Shown here: in pieces, positions 7,931 through 17,261 of the stretch | Numbering within the stretch: position 1 is the stretch's first letter | Layout: each line of letters starts with the position of its first letter | Assembly: GCA_041694835.1 (NCBI GenBank) | Contig: JBGFRZ010000075.1 | Location: 1-20,863 of the forward strand | Length of the DNA: 20,863 nucleotides | DNA from: Ignavibacteria bacterium | GTDB taxonomy: Bacteria > Elusimicrobiota > Endomicrobiia > PHAN01 | Reading direction: 5' to 3' | Notes under the pieces: generated by a model | Database searches by the model: none | The model's input: only the letters and a program-made list of their open reading frames with translations | What the model was told of the DNA's origin: nothing | Made by a program: the position numbers and the translations under genes

Positions 7931-10915
7931 TTACTTCTTAATCCTTATCACCTTACACTCGTCTATATAAAAAAGAGAGCCTTCTACGGCTTGGGTGCCG
8001 TAAATCCGGCCGATGTTTCTCATGTAGTTTTTGAGCTGAAAGATATGTTTCTCTGAATACTCCTCGCCAGTTTTATATTCGATGATCTCCATGCCGCCAT
8101 CAAGAAATATTATTCGGTCTATTCTAAATTTTTCGCCTCCCGAACTCACGAATTCCACTTCATTCCTGCCGGCTTTCCCGAACCACTTCGACAATTCCAT
8201 TTTTTCCATAGCATTTAAAATAGTCGTCTTTATTTCATTTTTATCCCCATCGAATTTCATCTCAGCTGCCGAGTTGTTTATCAGCGATTCCAAAAAATAC
8301 GGGAATTCATCCAATGAATCTATCGTGTCTATCTTTGAAAGAATGTGATGGATGAAAACTCCCCTCTCGGAGCATCTCATCCTTTTGGCGTCCGTATAAT
8401 AATCTAAATCGACCTCTTCCTTTCTTATTCTTTCGCTCCAGTGCACCTTTGATTTAGAAGTCAATATCCCGCAGGGATTTTGAATCGCATCTTTGATTTT
8501 CCTGACGAATTCTGTTTCATCGCTGACGCCTATATTGCAGTTCTCAAACATGACGGTAAACGGATTCCTGTTGCGATCGCTTTCAAGCATATAGACATAA
8601 AGTTCGTCCGCGGCGCGAGTCATCCCCACATAAAGCGAGTTAAGGTCGTCGAGCAACTCTTCTTCCTCGTTTTCACACTGCATCTTTCTCAACTCGGCGG
8701 AAAAAATAAGATAGTCCTTTTTTATGTACCTCAAATCCAAAGTGCCATCTTTCACGACGTGTTTGTTTTCTTTTTTCTGGGCGGGCAGAAAAGGCAGCAC
8801 GACCACCGGATAACTCAGCCCCTTGGCTTTATGAATCGTGGATACGTTTACGGCATCAATGAACTTCGGCAGTACAACCTGAAACTCTTCCGGCTCGGCT
8901 TTTTGCCAGTGGTCGAGAAAGTTTATAAGCGAATTCTCCCTTAAGTTTTCCCGGTCTTTAAGAATCTCAAGCATCCTCATTATGAACGCATCGTGGCCGG
9001 GAAATTTTTTCTGTATATCGTATTTATCCAAAATCAATCGCACAATATCGTAAGGAGCAAGACGATTCGAAAGTTCGAGGATTTTCCCAATATATTCGTC
9101 GTAAACCGGGCCAAATCTCTCGGAGAACAAAATGTAAAGAGGTCGGCCGTCAAAAGAACCAAAAAGCCTTTTTTCTTCAAAAAAACTAAAAATTGCGCGT
9201 CTTTCAATTCCGGAAACAGCGCGAAAAATATCGCCGGAAACAAAAGACGCGAAAGAAAGATTGTCCGATGGCATTTCCAAAAAACCGAGGAATGAAATGA
9301 TTCCCCGGATAACCGAGTTTTCCCTCGCGCTCATAGTAATTTCCGAAACCACCGGATAGCTTTCCGCAAGAAGCCATGATGTGATTTTTCTCACCTCTTC
9401 GTTCTTTCTTACAAGAATCGCTATATCGCTGCGATTATATCTCGCGCACAAATCCGAAATCAGCGGTATTATGTTTTCTTTCGTCATCTCGTCGAGTTCT
9501 TCTTTGTTTTTTTCCGCAAAGAGCTTTTTGACAACCACACGGCCGCCACCCGGATCTTTCCGTCGAGACGCTTTCTGACATGCAGTGGTATATGAAGAAA
9601 GTCTGTTTTTGGCGAGACCGGTTTTGGCAAGATTTTCCATACTAAAAATTTTATTATTGAACTCGACAATCTTCTTCTTACTTCTGAAATTTCTGTCGAG
9701 AAGATAACCCTTTTTATTCTTGATGAGAAAGTCATTCTTGGCGATGTCGAAAAGACCCGCCTGTCCACCCCTAAATCGATAAAGCGCCTGCTTCTTGTCC
9801 CCCACATAAAACAAACTGCCACCTGAAGCGAGCGAGTTTTCAACAAGAGGAAATAGATTTTTCCACTGAATCTCGCTTGTATCCTGAAACTCGTCTATCA
9901 GATAGTGATTTATTTTTTCTCCAAGCATATAGTATATGGACGGCACAGAACCTTTTTTGATGTAATCGCTTACTTCCATGTTAAGATCCGATATAAAAAC
10001 TATTCTGCGGGCATGCTTGTACTCTTGAAGCTTTTCCTCGACGGCTCTGTATATGGATATGTAAGAACCAAGTCTGGTGCGGGATAGCAATTTGAAATAA
10101 TCGTCCATCTTTTTTCTCAACCGCGCGGGCATTTCCTCAAGTTGGGTTTCGGTTATTTTCTCAAAATCAAACTCTGTGGCTTTTCTGATTATCGACCCGG
10201 CTGTTCTGTTTTTCTTCAATGTTCCACCGTAATTTATCAAATCGTTTTTTATTTTTTCTCTCAAATCAACAAGTCTCTCAAGCGAGCCGCCCGATTTAAA
10301 CTTCAGTCCATATGTCTTTTCCTTCTCGTAAAGAAACTCTATATTTTTCAAGAACAACTTTTTGGGATTCCAGATGCCCGAGCTTTCGGTAGTCAGATAA
10401 GAAGTGATGAAATCATCGAAAATTCCCGATATGCGCGAGCCCGATTTCAGACCGGAGAGGACATCGTCAACCACATACTCTATGCATTCGGAAGGATTCA
10501 TCTCTATATCGTACCTCGGCGGCAGACCCATTTCCACGGATGAGGAGAGAGCCACGGTGTTTATGAAGCTGTCTATGGTCTGGACGTTGAAATCAAGGTA
10601 GTTCTCAAGTATCTCTCGAACAATCGTGATGGCATTTTTGGAGAGCTGCCTGTCGGAAAAGCGGGCGAGGTAGCCTGAATCGTCGTACTCTTTCAACTTT
10701 TTGATTGTTTTTTCATCCCCCTGAGACACTTTTTTCATCCAATCGAGGATTCTGTGTTTCATCTCGTTCACGGCATCGTTCGTGAAGGTTATGGCCAGTA
10801 CATTTCTGAAATTAAAGCCGGAAAGAATAAGAGTGACAAAGTGAAGCGTTAGCTGATAGGTCTTGCCGCTGCCCGCCGATGCCTCGAGTGTTTTTATCTG
10901 GGGTGATTTTGACAT
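7931..10915 (-). CDS. addA: AddA/RecB-like SF1 helicase with a C-terminal PD-(D/E)XK nuclease
   Basis: EASAGSGKT, AITFTN, TIDSF, IDEFQDTS, VGDKKQALYRFRGG, NFRS, TIHKAKGL and YVGMTRA; C-terminal RG...H...E...RIDR...IIEYKTG...QL..Y. The ATG at 10915 is preferred over the TTG at 10936. Confidence 0.88.
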   Translation of the reverse strand: MSKSPQIKTLEASAGSGKTYQLTLHFVTLILSGFNFRNVLAITFTNDAVNEMKHRILDWMKKVSQGDEKTIKKLKEYDDSGYLARFSDRQLSKNAITIVREILENYLDFNVQTIDSFINTVALSSSVEMGLPPRYDIEMNPSECIEYVVDDVLSGLKSGSRISGIFDDFITSYLTTESSGIWNPKKLFLKNIEFLYEKEKTYGLKFKSGGSLERLVDLREKIKNDLINYGGTLKKNRTAGSIIRKATEFDFEKITETQLEEMPARLRKKMDDYFKLLSRTRLGSYISIYRAVEEKLQEYKHARRIVFISDLNMEVSDYIKKGSVPSIYYMLGEKINHYLIDEFQDTSEIQWKNLFPLVENSLASGGSLFYVGDKKQALYRFRGGQAGLFDIAKNDFLIKNKKGYLLDRNFRSKKKIVEFNNKIFSMENLAKTGLAKNRLSSYTTACQKASRRKDPGGGRVVVKKLFAEKNKEELDEMTKENIIPLISDLCARYNRSDIAILVRKNEEVRKITSWLLAESYPVVSEITMSARENSVIRGIISFLGFLEMPSDNLSFASFVSGDIFRAVSGIERRAIFSFFEEKRLFGSFDGRPLYILFSERFGPVYDEYIGKILELSNRLAPYDIVRLILDKYDIQKKFPGHDAFIMRMLEILKDRENLRENSLINFLDHWQKAEPEEFQVVLPKFIDAVNVSTIHKAKGLSYPVVVLPFLPAQKKENKHVVKDGTLDLRYIKKDYLIFSAELRKMQCENEEEELLDDLNSLYVGMTRAADELYVYMLESDRNRNPFTVMFENCNIGVSDETEFVRKIKDAIQNPCGILTSKSKVHWSERIRKEEVDLDYYTDAKRMRCSERGVFIHHILSKIDTIDSLDEFPYFLESLINNSAAEMKFDGDKNEIKTTILNAMEKMELSKWFGKAGRNEVEFVSSGGEKFRIDRIIFLDGGMEIIEYKTGEEYSEKHIFQLKNYMRNIGRIYGTQAVEGSLFYIDECKVIRIKK

Positions 10916-10938
10916 CTTTTTACAGTTCGCAGACAAAA

Positions 10939-12120
10939 TTAAGACAGACCTATGTCGGATGGCGCCCGTCCAAGTGATTTTAGAAGCTCTATGACATCGG
11001 ATATGCGCTCGGCGATCTTCCTGCCGGAGGCTGCTCTTTGAGGATAAAGATAATAAAGCGATTGATACTCTTCGGGGGTTACATTTATCATGACGGAGTT
11101 CGCTCCCGAAAGGAGAGCCTTTTGAGCGGCATTTTTTCTATCAAGAGTTTCGGTGGCTGTAGTAACAAGTATCCGAGAGTCGGGATAAATTATTCTGGTC
11201 CTCGCTATAGTGTCCAAAACTAAATCGATAGGAGGGGCGTTAACTCCACAGAGGGGTGTGTCGGGGTTTGGAATAAGCGGTCCAAAAGAGAACATCTCGA
11301 CACCCATGGACGCCGTCGTTTTTATATCTTCCAATATATCTTTTTTCGACTGACCTGGAAGGCCAAGAAGAAATCCGCTGATTATCATATAACCGATATT
11401 TTTCAAACGACCAAGCAGCGAGAGCCTTTCTTCTAAATGGTGTCCCGGACGATATTTTTCGTATAAAGATGCGTTAGCGGTTTCAAATCTCATGAGAACC
11501 CCGCGGGCGCCAGAGTCGTAGAGCTTCTTGTATGTAGATATCTCGCGCTCGCCTATGCTTAAAACTATGAGGACCGGGTTTTTCTCCATTACCGTTTTCA
11601 CTATCGCCGCGAGTTTTTCATCGTCATAAAACGGATCTTCGCCGGATTGGAAAACAAGAGCCTTGAAGCCCAATTTATTTACGGCATAATCCGCAGCTGA
11701 GACGATATCTTCAATGCTCATTCTGTAACGGGACAAATTGACATTATCTTTTCTTAACCCGCAGTAAAGACAGTTGTTCCGGCAGTGGTTTGAAAACTCA
11801 ATTATCCCGTGAACACACGAAGAATTTCCTGTGTGTTCCCTGCGGAGCTTGTTGGCAATCTCTCTGATATTTTCCTTTTTTTCCGTAAGTCTGATATCCG
11901 TTTTGGCGAGTTCGTCGAAGAGATCCTTCCACGCCTCAATCGCCAGTTGCGCCTCTTTTTCTCCGACTTTCCTTATTACAAAGCCGCCTTGAGCGTAAAC
12001 ATAATCACCGACGGAAATCTCGTAAAAATCACTCCTGGCGCGCTTACGCTGACCGAAGTAATCAACCGTCGCAAAATTTTTTTCCACCTCTACGACTTTC
12101 CCGGGAATTGAATAACACAT
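10939..12120 (-). CDS. Fusion of a HypC/HybG/HupF chaperone domain and a HydE-like radical SAM enzyme (393 aa)
   Basis: The N-terminus MCYSIPGKVVEV...ATVDYFG...VGDYVYAQGGFVIRKV..KEA follows the HypC pattern MCxxIPxxV...VGDxV. It continues into IIEFSNHCRNNCLYCGLR (CX3CX2C), RYRM, QSGED, LSIGE, RFET, GLPGQS, FGPLIPNPDTPL, TTA, GANSVM and YYLY, typical of HydE. The start is set at the ATG at 12120 so that Cys is residue 2. Confidence 0.88.
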   Translation of the reverse strand: MCYSIPGKVVEVEKNFATVDYFGQRKRARSDFYEISVGDYVYAQGGFVIRKVGEKEAQLAIEAWKDLFDELAKTDIRLTEKKENIREIANKLRREHTGNSSCVHGIIEFSNHCRNNCLYCGLRKDNVNLSRYRMSIEDIVSAADYAVNKLGFKALVFQSGEDPFYDDEKLAAIVKTVMEKNPVLIVLSIGEREISTYKKLYDSGARGVLMRFETANASLYEKYRPGHHLEERLSLLGRLKNIGYMIISGFLLGLPGQSKKDILEDIKTTASMGVEMFSFGPLIPNPDTPLCGVNAPPIDLVLDTIARTRIIYPDSRILVTTATETLDRKNAAQKALLSGANSVMINVTPEEYQSLYYLYPQRAASGRKIAERISDVIELLKSLGRAPSDIGLS

Positions 12121-12172
12121 ATTATTGACTTGAGACCGATGACACTCCGCTAAAACCTTGCCACAAAGTAGG

Positions 12173-12708
12173 AATAGGACGCAGATTTTCGCAGATTTGA
12201 TAGATATTAAAAACATCTGCGCCAATCTTGTCAAAATCGGCATTTACCTGCGTCCAAAAATGAAGAAGCGGAGCAGAAATAGGACGCAGATTTTCGCAGA
12301 TGAGTTTATAGTTGCTTTAATCTGCGTTTATCAAAGTTGTTTCTGCGTTCATCTGCGTTCAATTATTTTTTAGGACGCAGATTTACAGGATTATCGCAGA
12401 TTAAAAACTTTACCGCGAAATCACGAAAATTAGAAATCACAAAATTCTTTACAAGTATTTTCGTGTTTTCGCGCTTTCGTGATTCAAATCTTTTTTCTTC
12501 TGCGTTCAAAAATAAAAAAGTGGTTGTAGAAATAGGACGCAGATTTTCGCAGACGAGTTTATAGTTGCTTTAATCTGCGTTTATCAAAGTTGTTTCTGCG
12601 TTCATCTGCGTTCAATTATTTTTTAGGACGCAGATTTTCATAGATTTGGTAGATATGCCAATTTTGTCAACATCGGCATTGAGCTGCGTCCAAAAATAAA
12701 AAAGCGGT
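12173..12708. repeat. Array of five self-complementary units (order A-B-C-B-A) between hydG and hypC-hydE
   Basis: TAGGACGCAGATTT begins at 12175, 12280, 12371, 12533 and 12624. The complementary CTGCGT(C/T)CAA begins at 12248, 12353, 12500, 12606 and 12684. Positions 12275-12384 and 12528-12637 form a 110-bp direct repeat with one mismatch (12301 T vs 12554 C). Confidence 0.92.
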
Positions 12709-12784
12709 TAATGAGTTTTAGTGAAGCTTCAACAATCCCGACTTACATAAAACGGTCTTAAGCCCGAAGATTATGGACTACGGC

Positions 12785-14179
12785 TTAAAAAAATTCGTCT
12801 CGCTTTCCGTCTTTTATATCCTTCAATTTTTTTTCTGTCTCTTTTTTTAGTGAAGCGTTTTTTATTTGATTTAAATACAACCCTATTAACTTATAGCCTT
12901 TCTCGTAAGTTTCTCGGCGCGAAAAATCCTCCAGATATTCGGCAAATGTAAGAAGTCCGTTCGGACGACAGTATTCGTGAATCTCTCCTGGTTTGGCAAG
13001 AGTCATGAAATCGCGCCCCGTCCGACCGCTTCTGTAGCATGCTGTGCAAAAACTCGGAAGCAATCCCTGCTCTATTATGTCGTCGACAACGGATGAAAGC
13101 GTTCTGTTGTCAGATACGGAAAACTGCGGCTCGCCGCCTGATTTCCCATAGCCGCCCACGGATGTGACCGAGCCGGCGGATGCCTGTGATATCCCTATAT
13201 GAAACGCTTTCATCCTTATCCATGGATTTTCCCTGGTGCTGATTATCATGCCAGTATAGGGGACGGCGAGCCTCAGCACCGCTATTATTTTCAGAAAATC
13301 ATCGTCGCTTACAGGTTCTTGAGGACTGAAAGGCGACACATTCGCTGATTTGAAGCGGGGAACAGATATCGTATGAGGGCCAACTCCGAATCTCTTTTCG
13401 AGATATGAGGCATGCTCTACAAGAGAAAGAACCTCGAACCTCCAATCATAAAGACCGAAAAGAACGCCGAGACCGACATCATCGATTCCCGCTTCAAAAG
13501 CCCTGTCGTGGGCCGTTATCTGTCTTTCATAGTTCGCTTTGGGGCCGCTGTGGAGCCGTGCATAAGTTCCGCGATGGTATGTTTCCTGAAAAAGTTGATA
13601 CGTGCCTATGCCGGATTTTTTAAGTTTCCGATAGTTCTCGACAGTGGTGGCAGCGATGTTGACATTGACCCTTCTTATACCATTGCCGTCTTTATCCACG
13701 GAATAAATGACTTTTATCGCTTCGGTTATATAATCCACGAGACACTCTTCCGACTCGCCGGCTTCAAGAAGCAATCTCTTGTGGCCGCTGGCGATAAGTA
13801 TCTCCGTCTGACGCGCGATCTCGTCAAGCGAAAGTTTCTTGCGGCGCAAATTTTCGTTTCTTTTGTGAAAGTTGCAGTATTCACAGTCGTTTGAGCAAAA
13901 ATCTGAAATATAAATTGGCGCGAAAAAAACTATACGTTCGCCGTAAATCTCCTTTTTGATTTCCGCCGCCGCATTAAAAAGTTCTTTCCTAAACTCTCTC
14001 CCTTCGGAATTAAGCAGTATCGCCGTTTCTTCCAAATTCAATCCTTTTTTCAAGCGCGCCTTTTCGAGGACTTTCGGCGCCGCATTATCGTACGGCTTAA
14101 GCGACTCGCGAAGTATTCGCTCGATTTTTTCCGCATTGACGATATCACAAACCGTGTTATTCAATTTTTTCACCTTCAA
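12785..14179 (-). CDS. hydG: [FeFe]-hydrogenase H-cluster radical SAM maturase HydG
   Basis: FAPIYISDFCSNDCEYC (CX3CX2C), GHKRLLLEAGE, IRRVNVNIAA, GIGTYQLFQETYH, GVGPHTISVPR (dangler-Fe His) and PSFCTAC-x22-C (auxiliary cluster CX2CX22C). The start could be the TTG at 14179 or the GTG at 14173. Confidence 0.95.
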   Translation of the reverse strand: MKVKKLNNTVCDIVNAEKIERILRESLKPYDNAAPKVLEKARLKKGLNLEETAILLNSEGREFRKELFNAAAEIKKEIYGERIVFFAPIYISDFCSNDCEYCNFHKRNENLRRKKLSLDEIARQTEILIASGHKRLLLEAGESEECLVDYITEAIKVIYSVDKDGNGIRRVNVNIAATTVENYRKLKKSGIGTYQLFQETYHRGTYARLHSGPKANYERQITAHDRAFEAGIDDVGLGVLFGLYDWRFEVLSLVEHASYLEKRFGVGPHTISVPRFKSANVSPFSPQEPVSDDDFLKIIAVLRLAVPYTGMIISTRENPWIRMKAFHIGISQASAGSVTSVGGYGKSGGEPQFSVSDNRTLSSVVDDIIEQGLLPSFCTACYRSGRTGRDFMTLAKPGEIHEYCRPNGLLTFAEYLEDFSRRETYEKGYKLIGLYLNQIKNASLKKETEKKLKDIKDGKRDEFF

Positions 14180-14525
14180 CGCTTATAATTTTTATGTCGT
14201 TTCCGCCCGCGAGAGCCAAATACGCGCCCTTGCAGACCTGGCATTCTTTTAAAATTATGCTTACTTCGGCAAAATCTTTTGTTACTTTTGCGCCGCAGGA
14301 TTTACATATCAGATACGGCTCTTCCGTCTCAATAATCACGTCCGCTCCCGAAAATTCGCCTCCTTCGAATAAATGGTCGCGAAATGAATGGATAAGGAAA
14401 TCGGGAGCTATCCCCGACGCTTTGCCTATGGAAAGTTTTATCATAGATACTTTTTTTATATTTTTTTGGGTCGCGATCTTTTTTAATTTTCTGAATATTT
14501 CCGTAGCACATGCAAGCTCGTGCAT
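14157..14525 (-). CDS. hypA: Hydrogenase nickel incorporation protein HypA/HybF
   Basis: MHE N-terminal Ni motif when started at the ATG at 14525 (GAGG about 10 nt upstream), IG..SG, two CxxC motifs (CKSC, CQVC), and a C-terminal GG.DIKIISVE. Confidence 0.92.
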   Translation of the reverse strand: MHELACATEIFRKLKKIATQKNIKKVSMIKLSIGKASGIAPDFLIHSFRDHLFEGGEFSGADVIIETEEPYLICKSCGAKVTKDFAEVSIILKECQVCKGAYLALAGGNDIKIISVEGEKIE

Positions 14526-14535
14526 AGTGATTGCC

Positions 14536-15480
14536 TCAAGAGCCTCTTTCAAAAAAATAAAGTATTTCGTTCAGGGTCGCTTTAACGCTTTTGGACATTT
14601 CTCCGGACAAACTCATTTTCTCAGGTTGAACACCTATCACGAATATTTTTGCTGTGACATTTTCCTGAAGATAATCCAAAAAAAGCCTTATTCCAAAGCC
14701 ATGCGTAGAAAAGTTTAGATTCGGTAATTGTTCGGGCGAAAAAATTCCGAGAGTGCCGGGGGGCGTTCCATTTGAAATATAAATTGAATCAAACACAATG
14801 AGTGTGTCTGGATTTCTCGCGGATATTTTTGAAACATAGTTTTCCGGAGACATCCCGGCATCAATATACAGGCATCCCGGTTTTTTCTTCGCTTTTCTTA
14901 TAACTTCGGGTCCGAAACCGTCATCCCCCTTCATGGGATTCCCCGCTCCGACAAAAACGGTGTTTTTTCCGAGTGAAAGATACAGCGCAATAAAAGCAGC
15001 GATTTTGCGGGGGGTGTTTATGTCAACAAAAACGTGTTTTTCATCGCGCCACCCCGAAAAAGACGCTCCCGCGTCCACATAAAACAAAATCGTCGACTCG
15101 TCGATGGACAACCTGGCGATGATATCATCCGCCCGTCCGTCTTTTAAAATAAATATTTTCTTAAATTCTTTTTTGCTGTAACCTTCCACGATAAGCAGAT
15201 CCAACAAATCTTCAAACTTGTTAAAAATTTCTTCCGGTTCAAAATCGGCATTTTTCCTCATTGAAAATGAGACTTTTTTATCTGATGCCACGGCGGAAAC
15301 ATGGGCGCCGGCTTCAAAAAATCGATGCGAATCCTTCCCCGGAACATCGGCGGCGAAATCCCCGCCGGAATGCTTCAACGTTCCCACTCTCAGTCCCATC
15401 GCTTTGAATATCTGCACGAGTGATTCGATGAGTTTTGTTTTACCTGAACCGCTTTCGCCGACCACAGAGATTATATCCAT
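14536..15480 (-). CDS. Fusion of a MobB-like P-loop NTPase and a HycI-type hydrogenase maturation endopeptidase
   Basis: Residues ~1-165 carry VVGESGSGKT, RVGTLKH, DVPGKDS.RF.EAGA and DLLIVEGY (MobB). Residues ~172-314 carry VGAGNPMKGDDGFG, IDAGMSPEN, PD.LIVFD, STH and IGVQP (HycI/A31 peptidase). One uninterrupted frame. Confidence 0.88.
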   Translation of the reverse strand: MDIISVVGESGSGKTKLIESLVQIFKAMGLRVGTLKHSGGDFAADVPGKDSHRFFEAGAHVSAVASDKKVSFSMRKNADFEPEEIFNKFEDLLDLLIVEGYSKKEFKKIFILKDGRADDIIARLSIDESTILFYVDAGASFSGWRDEKHVFVDINTPRKIAAFIALYLSLGKNTVFVGAGNPMKGDDGFGPEVIRKAKKKPGCLYIDAGMSPENYVSKISARNPDTLIVFDSIYISNGTPPGTLGIFSPEQLPNLNFSTHGFGIRLFLDYLQENVTAKIFVIGVQPEKMSLSGEMSKSVKATLNEILYFFERGS

Positions 15481-16377
15481 TCAATTATTGAAAATCATCC
15501 GCCATAATCTCGATATTTTCCCCGCATCGGAGCGTGAGGCAACCTTTATTCTTTCTTTTTTATCAACTGTCGCAAAACCTGCGACGGAATCGTTGAATTT
15601 AAACTCAAACAATACCTTCTTGTCACGTCTCCTCGCTTTTGATATCTGGCAGGCTAGGGGGAGTATTCCTTCATCGCTCTTTCCTCCAAGCATTTCAGCG
15701 AGATACCCGGCTATCTCCCTCCGGTCGGTTATTTTTAGCCACACAACGTCATTTTCCGATAGAGCCGGCGCAGGAACGCCATCATCATCGACAAGCGGTT
15801 CAACTTCAAGCATAATTTTCCCCGATGCTTCACACCGCTCATGTGCAGAGGGGGGGTCTATGCTGATCTGGGTTTTATACGGCTCTTCGGAATAATCGAT
15901 TGAAACCACTATGTTTTCCGTGTCAAATACCTCGTTCAGAAACTCTTTCATTTTATCTTCACAACTCTGTTCACTCTCGAAAAAAAACACCCGTTCGATT
16001 ATTCGTGGGATTTTCTCCTGCATTATGTTTGAAAAATTTGGAAGAACGCTTTCCTCAAGTTTGTATGAATAAATGGCTTTGTCGATATCTTCCCATGAAA
16101 GAGAAAAATCGAGTTCATAAATTTTAGGGTTTTCCGAAATAACTGCGCTGGTCGTAAGAATATTGGCCTGTTTTATATCAAATATAATCAGGAATGCACC
16201 GTATATGAATTTGTCGGGAAGAATGAGCCTGCCTTTCACCACGCCAAGCCCCGGGGATACTTTGTTCAAAAAATCGAGAGCTTCGGCGAAATTGCCTTTC
16301 GCACTTTTATAAGCAAGTTCCGCCTCATAGTGATTGCATCCCGCAGTTTCCATCAAAAGCTTTATTTTATTTTCCAT
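15481..16377 (-). CDS. Hypothetical protein with an N-terminal UBA-like three-helix domain
   Basis: 298-aa ORF packed between xerC (2-nt gap) and mobB-hycI (0-nt gap). KIKLLMETAGC...EAELAYKSAKGNFAEALDFL resembles the EF-Ts N-terminal/NAC UBA-like repeat. Confidence 0.75.
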   Translation of the reverse strand: MENKIKLLMETAGCNHYEAELAYKSAKGNFAEALDFLNKVSPGLGVVKGRLILPDKFIYGAFLIIFDIKQANILTTSAVISENPKIYELDFSLSWEDIDKAIYSYKLEESVLPNFSNIMQEKIPRIIERVFFFESEQSCEDKMKEFLNEVFDTENIVVSIDYSEEPYKTQISIDPPSAHERCEASGKIMLEVEPLVDDDGVPAPALSENDVVWLKITDRREIAGYLAEMLGGKSDEGILPLACQISKARRRDKKVLFEFKFNDSVAGFATVDKKERIKVASRSDAGKISRLWRMIFNN

Positions 16378-16379
16378 AA

Positions 16380-17261
16380 TTATTTTCTCAATCGCGCCTT
16401 TTCATAAACTTTTTTGAGCTTTTCAAGCGTAAAATGCGTGTAGATTTGCGTCGTGGACAGGCTTGAATGTCCTAACATCTCCTGTATGCTCTTTAAATCA
16501 CAACCCCTGTCGAGAAGATGGGTGGCGAAAGAATGCCTGAAAGTATGCGGGGTCACCCTTTTTAGCACGTAGCTATTTTTCATCCAGTTCTTGAGAAGTT
16601 TGCTTATGCCTCGCGCCGTAATTCTGCGACCTCTCAAGTTTAAAAACACCCCGGGTGACTCACTACCAATTTTTCTTCTTTCTTCGAGATATTTTTTAAA
16701 AATATAAGTTGCGGGTTCACCTATTGGGACAATCCTCTCCTTTTCTCCTTTTCCGCGGACTTTTATCATCCCTCCGAGCAAATCAATATCGCCGAGATTT
16801 AAATTCACAAGTTCAGCTATTCTTATGCCGCTGGAATACAAAACCTCTATTATGCATTTCGTTCTCAACGCCGGGAAAGAATCGGATGACGGCAATTCGG
16901 CGATTTTCTCAACCTCGTTCTCCGAAAGAAAAACCGGCGCTTTTCTCTCTTTTTTCGGACTATGGAGATGGAGCAAAATCCTCGAGTCCAGTAATTTCTG
17001 GTTTATGAGATACCTGAAGAATGACCGCACCGCGGAAATCTTTCTTATCACGGTGTTTTTCTCGAGATTCTTCTTGCTTAAATGGAGCAGATACTTCCTC
17101 ACGATATATTTGTCTATCTGCGAAAATTCCATTATATTGTTTTTCTTTAGGAAAATCTTGAGGTCACTCATGTCGTTTTTGTAAGACCCGACGGTATGAA
17201 TGGAGTAATTCCTTGTTCCTTTAAGGTAAGTGTAAAATCTTTCCAACTGAACATTCATCAT
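16380..17261 (-). CDS. xerC: Tyrosine recombinase XerC/XerD family
   Basis: RNYSIHT..SY..D, RKISAVRSFF, LYSSGIRIAEL, GKGEKERIVP, TPHTFRHSFATHLL, IQEMLGHSSLSTTQIYTH. Classic position after dprA-topA. Confidence 0.93.
   Translation of the reverse strand: MMNVQLERFYTYLKGTRNYSIHTVGSYKNDMSDLKIFLKKNNIMEFSQIDKYIVRKYLLHLSKKNLEKNTVIRKISAVRSFFRYLINQKLLDSRILLHLHSPKKERKAPVFLSENEVEKIAELPSSDSFPALRTKCIIEVLYSSGIRIAELVNLNLGDIDLLGGMIKVRGKGEKERIVPIGEPATYIFKKYLEERRKIGSESPGVFLNLRGRRITARGISKLLKNWMKNSYVLKRVTPHTFRHSFATHLLDRGCDLKSIQEMLGHSSLSTTQIYTHFTLEKLKKVYEKARLRK

Follow-up and report, generated by a model that had tools for sequence, protein, structure and literature searches.

An in-frame HypC–HydE fusion whose genomic company suggests [NiFe]-hydrogenase active-site assembly without HypD, HypE and HypF

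The window, that is, the whole stretch of 20,863 nucleotides that we analysed, encodes a protein in which a HypC-type chaperone domain runs in frame into a HydE-type radical SAM barrel, and the genomic company of this fusion suggests that the [NiFe] active site is put together in an undescribed way, with none of the usual HypD, HypE and HypF. To our knowledge, HypC and these three proteins are regarded as the core that all [NiFe]-hydrogenase maturation has in common. Judged from sequence, the fusion is probably a bifunctional maturase which, together with the adjacent HydG, would supply the iron–carbonyl–cyanide unit of [NiFe] hydrogenases with no call on HypD, HypE or HypF; the basis for reading this as a replacement of the three is comparative genomics. 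The features of the fusion gene are as follows.

10939..12120, minus strand: hypC::hydE fusion gene, 393 codons plus stop; open frame with Pfam and NCBIfam domains
11896..12120, minus strand: HypC-like domain, residues 1–75 (PF01455 on residues 1–64, match to 2z1c, strands and helix of the model)
12115..12117, minus strand: TGT codon of Cys2, the N-terminal iron-binding cysteine of HypC-type chaperones, from the sequence
11989..11991, minus strand: codon of Gln44, in the column of the conserved HypD-contacting His of stand-alone HypC, from the alignment
10957..11892, minus strand: HydE-type radical SAM TIM barrel, residues 77–388 (TIGR03956, match to Thermotoga maritima HydE (TmHydE), Foldseek)
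11809..11817, minus strand: Cys102-Val-His104, fusion-specific residues in the columns of TmHydE H52 and R54, lower (S3) pocket
11761..11784, minus strand: CX3CX2C cluster motif, C113, C117 and C120, from the sequence; invariant in 120 fusions

The frame is open throughout, from the ATG at 12120 to the stop at 10939–10941, and its 393-residue product carries the profiles of both domains, which bears out the in-frame HypC–HydE fusion first read from the letters alone (the original prediction). The N-terminal domain, whose failure against a HypC profile would have counted against the prediction, was matched above the cut-off by HupF_HypC (Pfam PF01455) on residues 1–64, over model positions 1–65 of 65 (E 1.3e-15, 57.7 bits, cut-off 28.5); the NCBIfam HypC model TIGR00074 is slightly below its own cut-off (46.9 against 48 bits). 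In the remainder of the protein, Pfam places Radical_SAM (PF04055) on residues 107–267 and BATS on residues 282–357, and the HydE model TIGR03956 covers residues 77–384 with model positions 23–330 of 340. The first ∼22 positions of this last model are absent from the fusion, in line with the predicted loss of the HydE N-terminal region. Three further details of the prediction also held: the protein opens MCYSIPG and so has the Met-Cys start, the CX3CX2C motif is read as C113/C117/C120, and there are no cysteines beyond Y359, the optional C-terminal cysteines of the auxiliary cluster being missing. A longer ORF that starts at the ATG at 12243 (434 aa) is unlikely to be the true gene, as MCY is the start in 23 of 24 aligned homologues and the extra 41 codons fall within a repeat element.

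It had been allowed at the outset that the fusion might be unique to this assembly, and this is not the case. Because PF01455 and PF04055 occur together in all 120 of the homologue clusters listed as the best protein homologues, and a relative is encoded by 340 of the 372 pattern-matched stretches of species-representative genomes, the fusion is neither chance nor an assembly join. Among the groups with carriers are Omnitrophota, Planctomycetota, Elusimicrobiota and DPANN archaea. The architecture also occurs as HypC–HydE–HydG triple fusions, with two representatives of 906 and 881 aa, and in forms with a long linker (P0121, P0122, P0138 and P0139), which score 263–371 bits on TIGR03956.

Beside the fusion gene, and on the same strand, lie three further genes for maturation proteins, the nearest of them beyond a long spacer.

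12121..12784, no strand assigned: spacer of 664 bp that separates hydG from the fusion gene and is filled by word repeats (GACGCAGA / TCTGCG) and a direct duplication of 113 nt, from the sequence
12785..14179, minus strand: hydG, radical SAM tyrosine lyase with C-terminal CX2CX22C (TIGR03955, 536.9 bits, cut-off 312.15)
14157..14552, minus strand: hypA, nickel metallochaperone (PF01155, 69 bits, cut-off 28.9)
14536..15480, minus strand: fusion of a mobB-like P-loop domain with a HycI-type hydrogenase maturation endopeptidase (PF03205, PF01750)

We take the CX2CX22C of the hydG product to be the C-terminal cysteine motif of a full HydG. In the MobB::HycI protein, PF03205 lies on residues 3–118 and PF01750 on residues 200–306, and TIGR00072 scores 92.1 bits. 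The gap between HydG and the fusion has a median of 16 bp elsewhere, against the 664 bp found here. A promoter and terminator scan of positions 10800–16500 gave values not clearly above those of shuffled sequence (14 against 9.7, sd 3.7; 12 against 7.0, sd 2.5). Over 80 fusion loci, HydG is present in 59, the HycI protease and the [NiFe] large subunit in 26 each, and Mbh/Mrp-type subunits in 12–16; at 43 of the 80 there is no hydrogenase gene within the DNA examined.

The genome to which the window belongs (1.9 Mb, 97.2% complete) encodes a group-4 [NiFe] large subunit with the motifs RICGICSTSH and DPCYCCTER and a 34-residue C-terminal extension, together with HydG, HypA and the MobB::HycI protease. 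Its sole HypC is the fused domain. Within this 97.2%-complete genome, HypD gave no match, the [FeFe] hydrogenase (Fe_hyd_lg_C) and HypB were not found, and the best matches to HypE (56 bits, cut-off 251.6), HypF (30.1 bits, cut-off 466.1) and HydF (85.5 bits, cut-off 325.55) lie far below the respective cut-offs.

Turning to the 50 other fusion genomes, which were reached through their loci and for which completeness figures are not given, HydG is present in every one and the large subunit of a [NiFe] hydrogenase in 49, with HypD and HypE in one genome each, HydF in three and HypF, above cut-off, in none. One genome (G044) has the module and no hydrogenase match. From these figures we infer, in agreement with the original prediction, that the fusion could stand in for HydF and HypD: neither was found in the window's own genome and both are rare among the other carriers (3/50 and 1/50), and the constancy of HydG and of the large subunit (50/50 and 49/50) agrees with this too. 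Among 151 genomes sampled from the phylum of the window's genome, a [NiFe] large subunit occurs in 68; HypD is found in 57 of these 68 and the fusion in nine, with no genome having both and two having neither. One genome that is 100% complete (G053) encodes [NiFe] large subunits without HypC, HypD or HydG, and therefore the absence of HypD is not always tied to the fusion module. As for the large subunits themselves, those of group 4 from fusion genomes and from HypD genomes intermix on the tree (an example pair in one family has an SH-aLRT of 99). Among 29 sequences there are no alignment columns that divide the two kinds, and both Cys motifs are retained in all 29.

It is conceivable that the module accounts for just some of the ligands, for example CO alone, and that cyanide arrives by an unrecognised route or maturation depends on partner organisms. 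HydG chemistry is established to yield more CO than the [NiFe] site needs, and many of the carriers are Omnitrophota and DPANN with small genomes, organisms often described as host-dependent. We nevertheless think this unlikely, given that HydG produces cyanide besides CO, that HypE and HypF, the only cyanide route known to us, are each missing in 49–50 of the 50 carriers, and that no additional conserved unknown gene is evident among the neighbour families found at seven or more of the 80 loci.

Nor is the module easily read as one for [FeFe] hydrogenases, in which HydG and the fused HydE would prepare the precursor of an H-cluster, destined for an [FeFe] enzyme or some unrecognised iron hydrogenase, with the HypC domain as a scaffold replacing HydF and the [NiFe] enzyme matured otherwise. 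Fe_hyd_lg_C has no match in 43 of the 50 fusion genomes or in the window's own genome, and the neighbours at the fusion loci are [NiFe] subunits, HycI and HypA, with no [FeFe] hydrogenase among the annotated neighbour families. The known client of HypC is the [NiFe] large subunit, and the arginines that touch the di-iron product in TmHydE are lost from the fusion. Both catalytic parts do come from [FeFe] maturase families, and archaea with [FeFe] hydrogenases mostly lack HydEFG according to passages of PMC11216029. Moreover, an [FeFe] hydrogenase is encoded in seven of the 50 fusion genomes, of which three (G013, G035 and G037) have no second HydE or HydF; in these three, the fusion may play a role in [FeFe] maturation. 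The other four (G017, G020, G024 and G049) have an [FeFe] hydrogenase and a second, canonical HydE as well as the fusion, such a separate HydE being found wherever both hydrogenase types co-occur with HydF; among the four, a second HydG-like match, below cut-off, is seen only in G049. Taken together, we consider an [FeFe]-type module quite unlikely.

The prediction would have suffered had the barrel grouped outside HydE. It does not, HydE being nearest by profile, by sequence search against solved structures, by fold and by tree. On the fusion protein of the window (P0001), TIGR03956 scores 245.3 bits, slightly below its equivalog cut-off of 254.6, and the other radical SAM profiles are all below theirs, with PylB (TIGR03910) at 135.8 against 348.2, BioB (TIGR00433) at 86.5 against 225 and HmdB/HcgA (TIGR03957) at 72.4 against 320.9. 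The TIGR03956 cut-off is passed in 30 of the 50 fusion genomes, taking the best match per genome; in four of the 30 (G017, G020, G024 and G049) that best match is the second, canonical HydE, and the fused copies there pass too. Against solved structures, the barrel sequence matches TmHydE with an E-value of 4e-69, PylB with 5e-22 and BioB with 3e-7 or weaker, and Foldseek on the model of the fusion protein (AF2, pLDDT 92.1, pTM 0.91) gave target-normalised TM-scores of 0.83–0.88 to the HydE-type (beta-alpha)8 fold. A tree rooted on two outgroups, the HydG of the window and a paralogue on contig C73 of 30% identity, places the fused domains within HydE diversity; the comparison with PylB, BioB and HmdB/HcgA is one of profile scores and, for PylB and BioB, also of PDB scores.

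Residue by residue, of the 38 columns that are conserved across canonical HydE, the fusions retain 28. The CX3CX2C motif is invariant across 120 fusion proteins, the upper pocket residues are conserved, and M276 and M344, which by hand mapping from the alignment correspond to TmHydE M224 and M291, are kept in at least 90% of both fused and canonical rows. In TmHydE these two methionines hold the Fe(I) units, as described in passages of PMC11826987. Changes are found in the lower pocket. C102 and H104 are invariant among the 120 fusions, and the 104 column has Arg in 50 of 54 canonical HydE rows against none of 29 fused rows. The columns of TmHydE R54 and R155 are occupied in the fusion by H104 and G207, with no Arg at either in the 29 fused rows. 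Mutating these two S3-pocket arginines harms canonical HydE, their roles being described in passages of PMC11826987 and PMC10114646. Next to G207, position 206 is an almost invariant Arg in the fusions, so it is possible that the second S3 arginine has been shifted by one residue. Hand mapping also places Arg362 of the fusion at TmHydE Lys309, a residue whose role is described in passages of PMC11826987. As a result of the sub-cut-off score and the loss of the two arginines, P0001 may, on its sequence, not carry out the HydE reaction. That the radical SAM domain has diverged altogether to a non-HydE reaction, on some other sulfur or iron substrate for instance, and that its link to [NiFe] is regulatory or indirect, would fit this score, the 10 of 38 columns not fully kept (the two functional arginines among them) and Arg362, but is very unlikely when the fused domains sit inside HydE diversity, 30 of 50 genomic copies exceed the cut-off, the upper pocket, methionines and cluster motif are retained, and HydG, the source of the HydE substrate, is present in 50/50 genomes, adjacent in 59/80 loci and sometimes fused.

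The HypC part is modelled as a five-strand beta barrel (strands at 7–13, 16–21, 24–29, 40–44 and 47–52), after which a long helix begins (54–78), and it matches T. kodakarensis HypC (2z1c) with an E-value of 2.3e-11. Cys2 is kept in all 22 fused domains and all 16 stand-alone HypC proteins compared, and is present in at least 90% of the 120 fusion proteins. The His of the HypD interface is found in none of the 22 fused domains, against all 16 of the stand-alone HypC proteins, which adjoin HypD. Gln44 of the fusion aligns with this His in 2z1c, and the column was confirmed; passages of PMC9002611 place the conserved His, which is H51 in E. coli and H44 in T. kodakarensis, at the interface with HypD. 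Complex prediction for the HypC domain with the large subunit gave a score of 0.37, the best of three controls being 0.00. This lends weak support to such binding: 58 of 80 solved complexes reach the mark, as do two of 110 mismatched pairs, and scores of 0.60 or less that still reach it come from just seven of the 80 solved complexes, yet from both mismatches. At least 51% of contacts agreed between runs, with a partner pLDDT of at least 74.

If the fusion is indeed a bifunctional [NiFe] maturase, the route can be set out in four steps. Canonical HydG is established to use tyrosine for making the synthon Fe(Cys)(CO)x(CN)y, and by analogy the HydG here would do likewise. The HydE barrel would then accept the synthon and remove its cysteine backbone by radical SAM chemistry, a reaction established for T. 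maritima HydE; we infer it for the fusion because the cluster motif and the iron-holding methionines are conserved. In the third step, the mononuclear iron unit would escape pairing into the di-iron product meant for HydF, leave through the lower pocket, remodelled with Cys102 and His104 in place of the canonical arginines, and be handed, as the original prediction supposed, to Cys2 in the HypC domain to which the barrel is covalently joined. Finally, the HypC domain would dock on the large-subunit precursor and insert the iron unit, nickel would be added by HypA, perhaps with help from the MobB-like domain, and the HycI-type protease would remove the C-terminal extension. This last step is proposed because of the genes present, and its order is that of established [NiFe] maturation.

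Extended to the carriers as a group, the balance tips, if only slightly, towards a radical SAM route by which these widespread uncultured anaerobes (Omnitrophota, Planctomycetota with anammox relatives, Elusimicrobiota and DPANN, among others) would make the iron half of their [NiFe] sites, in which CO and CN would come from tyrosine via HydG and a HypC-tethered HydE would process the iron unit and deliver it to the large subunit without HypD, HypE or HypF. The product of canonical HydG is Fe(CO)2(CN) and the [NiFe] site holds Fe(CO)(CN)2, a ligand mismatch with the proposed route. The [NiFe] enzymes of fusion carriers may hold, at least transiently, a non-canonical Fe(CO)2(CN) unit.

The anaerobic source of the [NiFe] CO ligand is a long-standing question, and a HydG-dependent route, if true, would name that source for many environmentally abundant anaerobes. 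It would also mean that ligand-making chemistry is common to both great hydrogenase families, and would provide a living bridge between [NiFe] and [FeFe] maturation. Annotation would need correcting, since homologues of the fusion at present go by the names ‘[FeFe] hydrogenase maturase HydE’ or ‘biotin synthase’, and carriers have therefore perhaps been mis-scored as lacking [NiFe] maturation or as [FeFe]-capable. As the module consists of only two genes, or one in the triple fusions, it would be an attractive minimal toolkit for the heterologous production of [NiFe] hydrogenases.

Our literature search, which covered the texts of papers, found no paper proposing HydG/HydE-dependent [NiFe] maturation. 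Table S3 of PMC11216029, which gives archaeal maturase matches, may include HypC–HydE fusions. The words HydE, HydG, HypC, HypD, ‘maturation’ and ‘radical SAM’ do not occur in bioRxiv 10.1101/536078. A HydE–HypC fusion described as ‘unusual’ is reported for a Legionellales symbiont, within its [NiFe] group 3c operon (bioRxiv 10.64898/2026.04.11.717937). In the passages available, it has the same domain pair and lies in a [NiFe] operon with a protease, HypA and HypB; these passages give it one sentence, within a ‘full maturation machinery’, and contain no analysis of the fusion, no link to HydG and no statement on HypD, HypE or HypF.

Among characterised systems, HcgA/HmdB of the [Fe]-hydrogenase (Hmd) cofactor is alike in being a BioB/HydE-like radical SAM enzyme that matures a hydrogenase other than [FeFe]. 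It differs in having neither a HypC domain nor a HydG partner, and its profile (TIGR03957) scores 72.4 bits on the fusion against a cut-off of 320.9.

With the HydE–HydF–HydG system (T. maritima HydE, PDB 3IIZ, 7O1O and others), the fusion shares the barrel, the CX3CX2C motif and the equivalents of Met224 and Met291, and it is always paired with a full HydG bearing the C-terminal cysteine motif. In contrast to that system, most fusion carriers are without HydF and HydA. The fusion has other residues in place of R54 and R155, has acquired a Cys and a His in the S3 pocket and is without the auxiliary-cluster cysteines, whilst an N-terminal HypC domain is added, the short form lacking ∼22 N-terminal positions of the HydE model.

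The likeness to HypC–HypD–HypE–HypF of E. coli and Thermococcus kodakarensis lies in the chaperone fold with its essential N-terminal Cys2, in the client ([NiFe] large subunits of groups 4 and 3 that carry a C-terminal extension) and in the company of HypA and a HycI-type protease. The fusion differs from that system in that HypD, HypE and HypF were not found, the fused HypC is without the HypD-contacting His, and the chaperone forms one polypeptide with a radical SAM enzyme. The ligand source presumed here is tyrosine via HydG, whereas in HypCDEF it is carbamoyl phosphate.

The maturation genes of the window form a minus-strand run, which ends with the hypC::hydE fusion gene.

14536-15480, minus strand, MobB-like P-loop NTPase domain (residues 3-118) fused to a HycI-type maturation protease (residues 200-306)
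14157-14552, minus strand, HypA
12785-14179, minus strand, HydG (536.9 bits, cut-off 312.15)
12121-12784, spacer of word repeats between hydG and the fusion gene, 664 bp
12120 (ATG) to 10939, minus strand, hypC::hydE fusion gene, last of the run, open frame of 393 codons

Pfam places HupF_HypC at residues 1-64 of the fusion, with the entire model covered (E 1.3e-15, 57.7 bits, cut-off 28.5), Radical_SAM at 107-267 and BATS at 282-357. The top-ranked NCBIfam model is HydE (residues 77-384 against model positions 23-330 of 340, 245.3 bits), with lower scores for PylB (135.8), BioB (86.5) and HmdB (72.4). Against solved structures, the barrel matched T. maritima HydE (TmHydE; E 4e-69, query 82-388) and PylB (5e-22), and residues 1-67 matched T. 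kodakarensis HypC (E 5e-10). The translated sequence starts MCYSIPG, carries the cluster motif C113-X3-C117-X2-C120 and has no cysteine beyond Y359. The three sequence statements of the original prediction, that HypC-like sequence starting Met-Cys is in frame with a HydE-like barrel, that the barrel contains CX3CX2C and that no cysteine follows the YYLY motif, are therefore correct. In the AlphaFold model (pLDDT 92.1, pTM 0.91), a five-strand barrel leads into a long helix (54-78), followed by another helix (85-97) and the TIM barrel; a Foldseek search with this model put TmHydE entries on top (target-normalised TM-score 0.83-0.88; PylB 0.77).

A longer frame of 434 codons, starting at 12243, was rejected as the true gene: 23 of 24 aligned homologues have the MCY start, and the additional codons fall inside the repeat element. 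The spacer is made of GACGCAGA / TCTGCG word repeats, in which a 33-nt unit occurs five times and a stretch of 113 nt is duplicated in direct orientation (98% identity). The spacer's 664 bp compare with a median HydG–fusion gap of 16 bp elsewhere. The flanking genes of the window belong to DNA metabolism (XerC, TopA and DprA; UvrD/AddB-like and ComEC) and are not kept as neighbours in related loci. Between xerC and the MobB::HycI gene lies a 298-aa ORF (15481-16377, minus strand); it matched neither Pfam nor NCBIfam models, and tblastn against the 80 related loci found nothing.

The fusion belongs to a conserved family and is not a product of misassembly. The homologue search scored 8000 candidates, 2172 of them at E ≤ 0.001, and the proposed domain-architecture search found PF01455 together with PF04055 in all 120 of the matches listed (120 of the 2172, query included; 381-415 aa), whose source names are HydE, ‘biotin synthase’, ‘radical SAM protein’ or HypC. 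Nor is the fusion unique to this assembly, the outcome that would have counted against the original prediction: two peptide patterns matched 372 stretches of species-representative genomes, and 340 of these encode a relative. The best 80 of the 340, used for locus comparisons, comprise by record title 30 Omnitrophota, 12 Planctomycetota (Brocadiia and Scalindua among them), 6 Elusimicrobiota, 11 archaea (Micrarchaeota, Aenigmatarchaeota, Woesearchaeota and Altiarchaeota types) and other phyla in smaller numbers. A library of 1.84 billion representatives gave 428 proteins at E ≤ 1e-30; the HypC domain was present in 21 of the best 150, and two of these 21, P0121 (906 aa) and P0139 (881 aa), are predicted single-chain HypC-HydE-HydG triple fusions. 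A further protein, P0149 (803 aa), is a predicted HydE-HydG fusion without HypC.

A tree of HydE was built by a quick method from 95 rows spanning at least 270 model positions, without 52 of the 105 canonical representatives and with the window's HydG and a paralogue as outgroups. The fused barrel groups inside HydE, in agreement with the original assignment. Short-linker fusions group together (SH-aLRT 99) within a 24-row fused clade (100) that includes one N-terminally truncated row, and a second fused type, starting MCLTIPG, adjoins it (97). Every fused row falls, with two unfused rows, in a 31-row group (80) nested in canonical HydE, and the canonical HydEs of fusion genomes are placed elsewhere. 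In eight other HydE representatives (P0150, P0157, P0159, P0161, P0216, P0227, P0238 and P0247) the N terminus is extended by ∼100-130 residues of non-HypC sequence, and four of the eight cluster together (SH-aLRT 99) close to the fused group.

The window's own genome (1.9 Mb, 89 contigs) is 97.2% complete, and HypD was not found in it. HypE, HypF and HydF gave only remote family matches, far under the cut-offs, no [FeFe] hydrogenase domain was found, and the fused HypC is the only HypC. Neither was there a HypB match in this genome, so the MobB-like domain may substitute for the GTPase of nickel insertion. The protease of other loci stands alone, at ∼163 aa. A group-4-type [NiFe] large subunit, with RICGICSTSH, DPCYCCTER and a C-terminal extension of 34 residues, adjoins a NuoC-like subunit on a 2.7-kb contig. 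Upstream of these two genes (contig C59, locus L001 1487-2622) are two small ORFs of 144 and 95 aa, which by eye look like a HEPN/nucleotidyltransferase-type pair. Folding the HypC domain with this large subunit gave a weakly supportive score of 0.37 (best of three controls, 0.00; contact agreement between runs at least 51%, partner pLDDT at least 74). Of 80 solved complexes, 58 reached this mark, as did 2 of 110 mismatched pairs; at scores of 0.60 or below, only 7 of the 80 did so, along with both mismatches.

The same gene content recurs in other carriers. In the 50 genomes with most DNA among the 80 loci (the other 30 being mostly short contigs), HydG was over cut-off in 50, the [NiFe] large subunit over cut-off in 49, HypD in 1, HypE in 1, HypF over cut-off in none, HydF in 3 and [FeFe] hydrogenase in 7. 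The single one of the 50 with HypD and HypE is G020, where both adjoin a group-1/2-like large subunit. Four genomes (G017, G020, G024 and G049) combine an [FeFe] hydrogenase with a second, canonical HydE (308-386 bits); among these, a second HydG-like match was seen only in G049, below cut-off. In two Omnitrophota genomes, G017 (contig C2, 403-425 kb) and G020 (contig C1, 404-438 kb), seven hydrogenase-related genes lie within ∼20-35 kb, including HydG, the HypC-HydE fusion, HydF, an [FeFe] hydrogenase, a canonical HydE and a [NiFe] large subunit. Across the 80 loci, neighbours include HydG in 59 (upstream in 35, downstream in 20), the HycI protease in 26, the large subunit in 26, the small subunit in 13, Mbh/Mrp-type membrane subunits in 12-16 and a group-3-type FAD/NAD subunit in 9. 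At least one [NiFe]-related neighbour is present in 37 of the 80, and no [FeFe] hydrogenase family appears among the 20 annotated neighbour families.

The control set was 151 genomes from the phylum of the window, of which 138 have a completeness of 90% or more; the genomes of this set are mutually related and not independent samples. HypD was found in 60, the [NiFe] large subunit in 68 and the full-length fusion in 7; 2 more carry a long-linker fusion, both with HydG, and 91 further genomes have canonical HydE only (32-43% identity). When the lists were cross-tabulated by hand, the 68 genomes with [NiFe] comprised 57 with HypD, 9 with the fusion, none with both and 2 with neither, and three HypD genomes had no large-subunit match at E ≤ 1e-8. 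The fusion and HypD are mutually exclusive in the genomes sampled, with none having both in the phylum set and HypD in 1 of the 50 carriers. G062, with [NiFe] and without HypD or fusion, has a completeness of 78% and encodes an unfused HypC. G053, a 100% complete genome with four large-subunit matches, yielded no HypC, HypD or HydG and no fusion match at E ≤ 1e-40, so that neither the known nor the proposed maturation system was found there.

Both halves of the fusion show residue changes. All 22 fused HypC domains have Cys2. Sixteen stand-alone HypC proteins, found in 21 regions examined beside hypD, all have His at a column where the fused domains have Gln (17), Thr (3), Tyr (1) or Ala (1). 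Gln44, invariant across the 120 fusions compared, aligns with T. kodakarensis HypC His44 (E. coli H51), which is described as located at the HypC–HypD interface and required for good interaction with HypD (PMC9002611). For HydE, the 54 canonical rows share 38 columns with a conservation of 90% or more, and the 29 fused rows retain 28 of these. Among the retained columns are, on mapping by hand from the structure-search alignment, the equivalents of TmHydE M224 and M291, reported to hold both Fe(I) units prior to dimerisation (PMC11826987). R54 and R155, which with T134 and T269 are reported to contact the cyanides of the dimer (PMC11826987), correspond by hand mapping to His104 and Gly207; the S3 site is described as a threonine and two arginines, mutation of which impairs maturation (PMC10114646). 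Cys102, His104, Ser278 and Ser342 are fusion-specific. The fusions thus retain the reaction chamber and have a remodelled lower pocket, on the product side, that has gained a thiol and an imidazole.

We infer each chemical step of the following route. HydG would produce an iron synthon bearing CO/CN, from which the fused HydE would strip the cysteine backbone. The mononuclear iron unit could be handed, perhaps through Cys102 and His104, to Cys2 of the tethered HypC, which would then load the large subunit. Completion would fall to HypA, the MobB-like domain and the protease. The route would have to yield a ligand set of 1 CO : 2 CN, and some carriers may use the module for [FeFe] enzymes as well. 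Targeted literature searches found no paper proposing a HydG/fused-HydE route for [NiFe] maturation; one preprint notes, in a single sentence, a HydE-HypC fusion in the [NiFe] group 3c operon of a Legionellales symbiont (bioRxiv 10.64898/2026.04.11.717937).

The large subunits allow comparison with the HypD system. Among 29 group-4 large subunits placed on a maximum-likelihood tree by a quick method, sequences from fusion and HypD genomes are intermixed: the subunit of G119, a fusion genome, is most closely joined, as sister, to the subunits of three HypD genomes from its own family (SH-aLRT 99), and a second HypD/fusion pair has a support of 100. Both cysteine motifs are kept in all 29, and the alignment has no column that distinguishes the two sets. 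This argues that the module of HydG and the fusion functionally replaces HypD, HypE and HypF, and that the large-subunit pocket has not been adapted.
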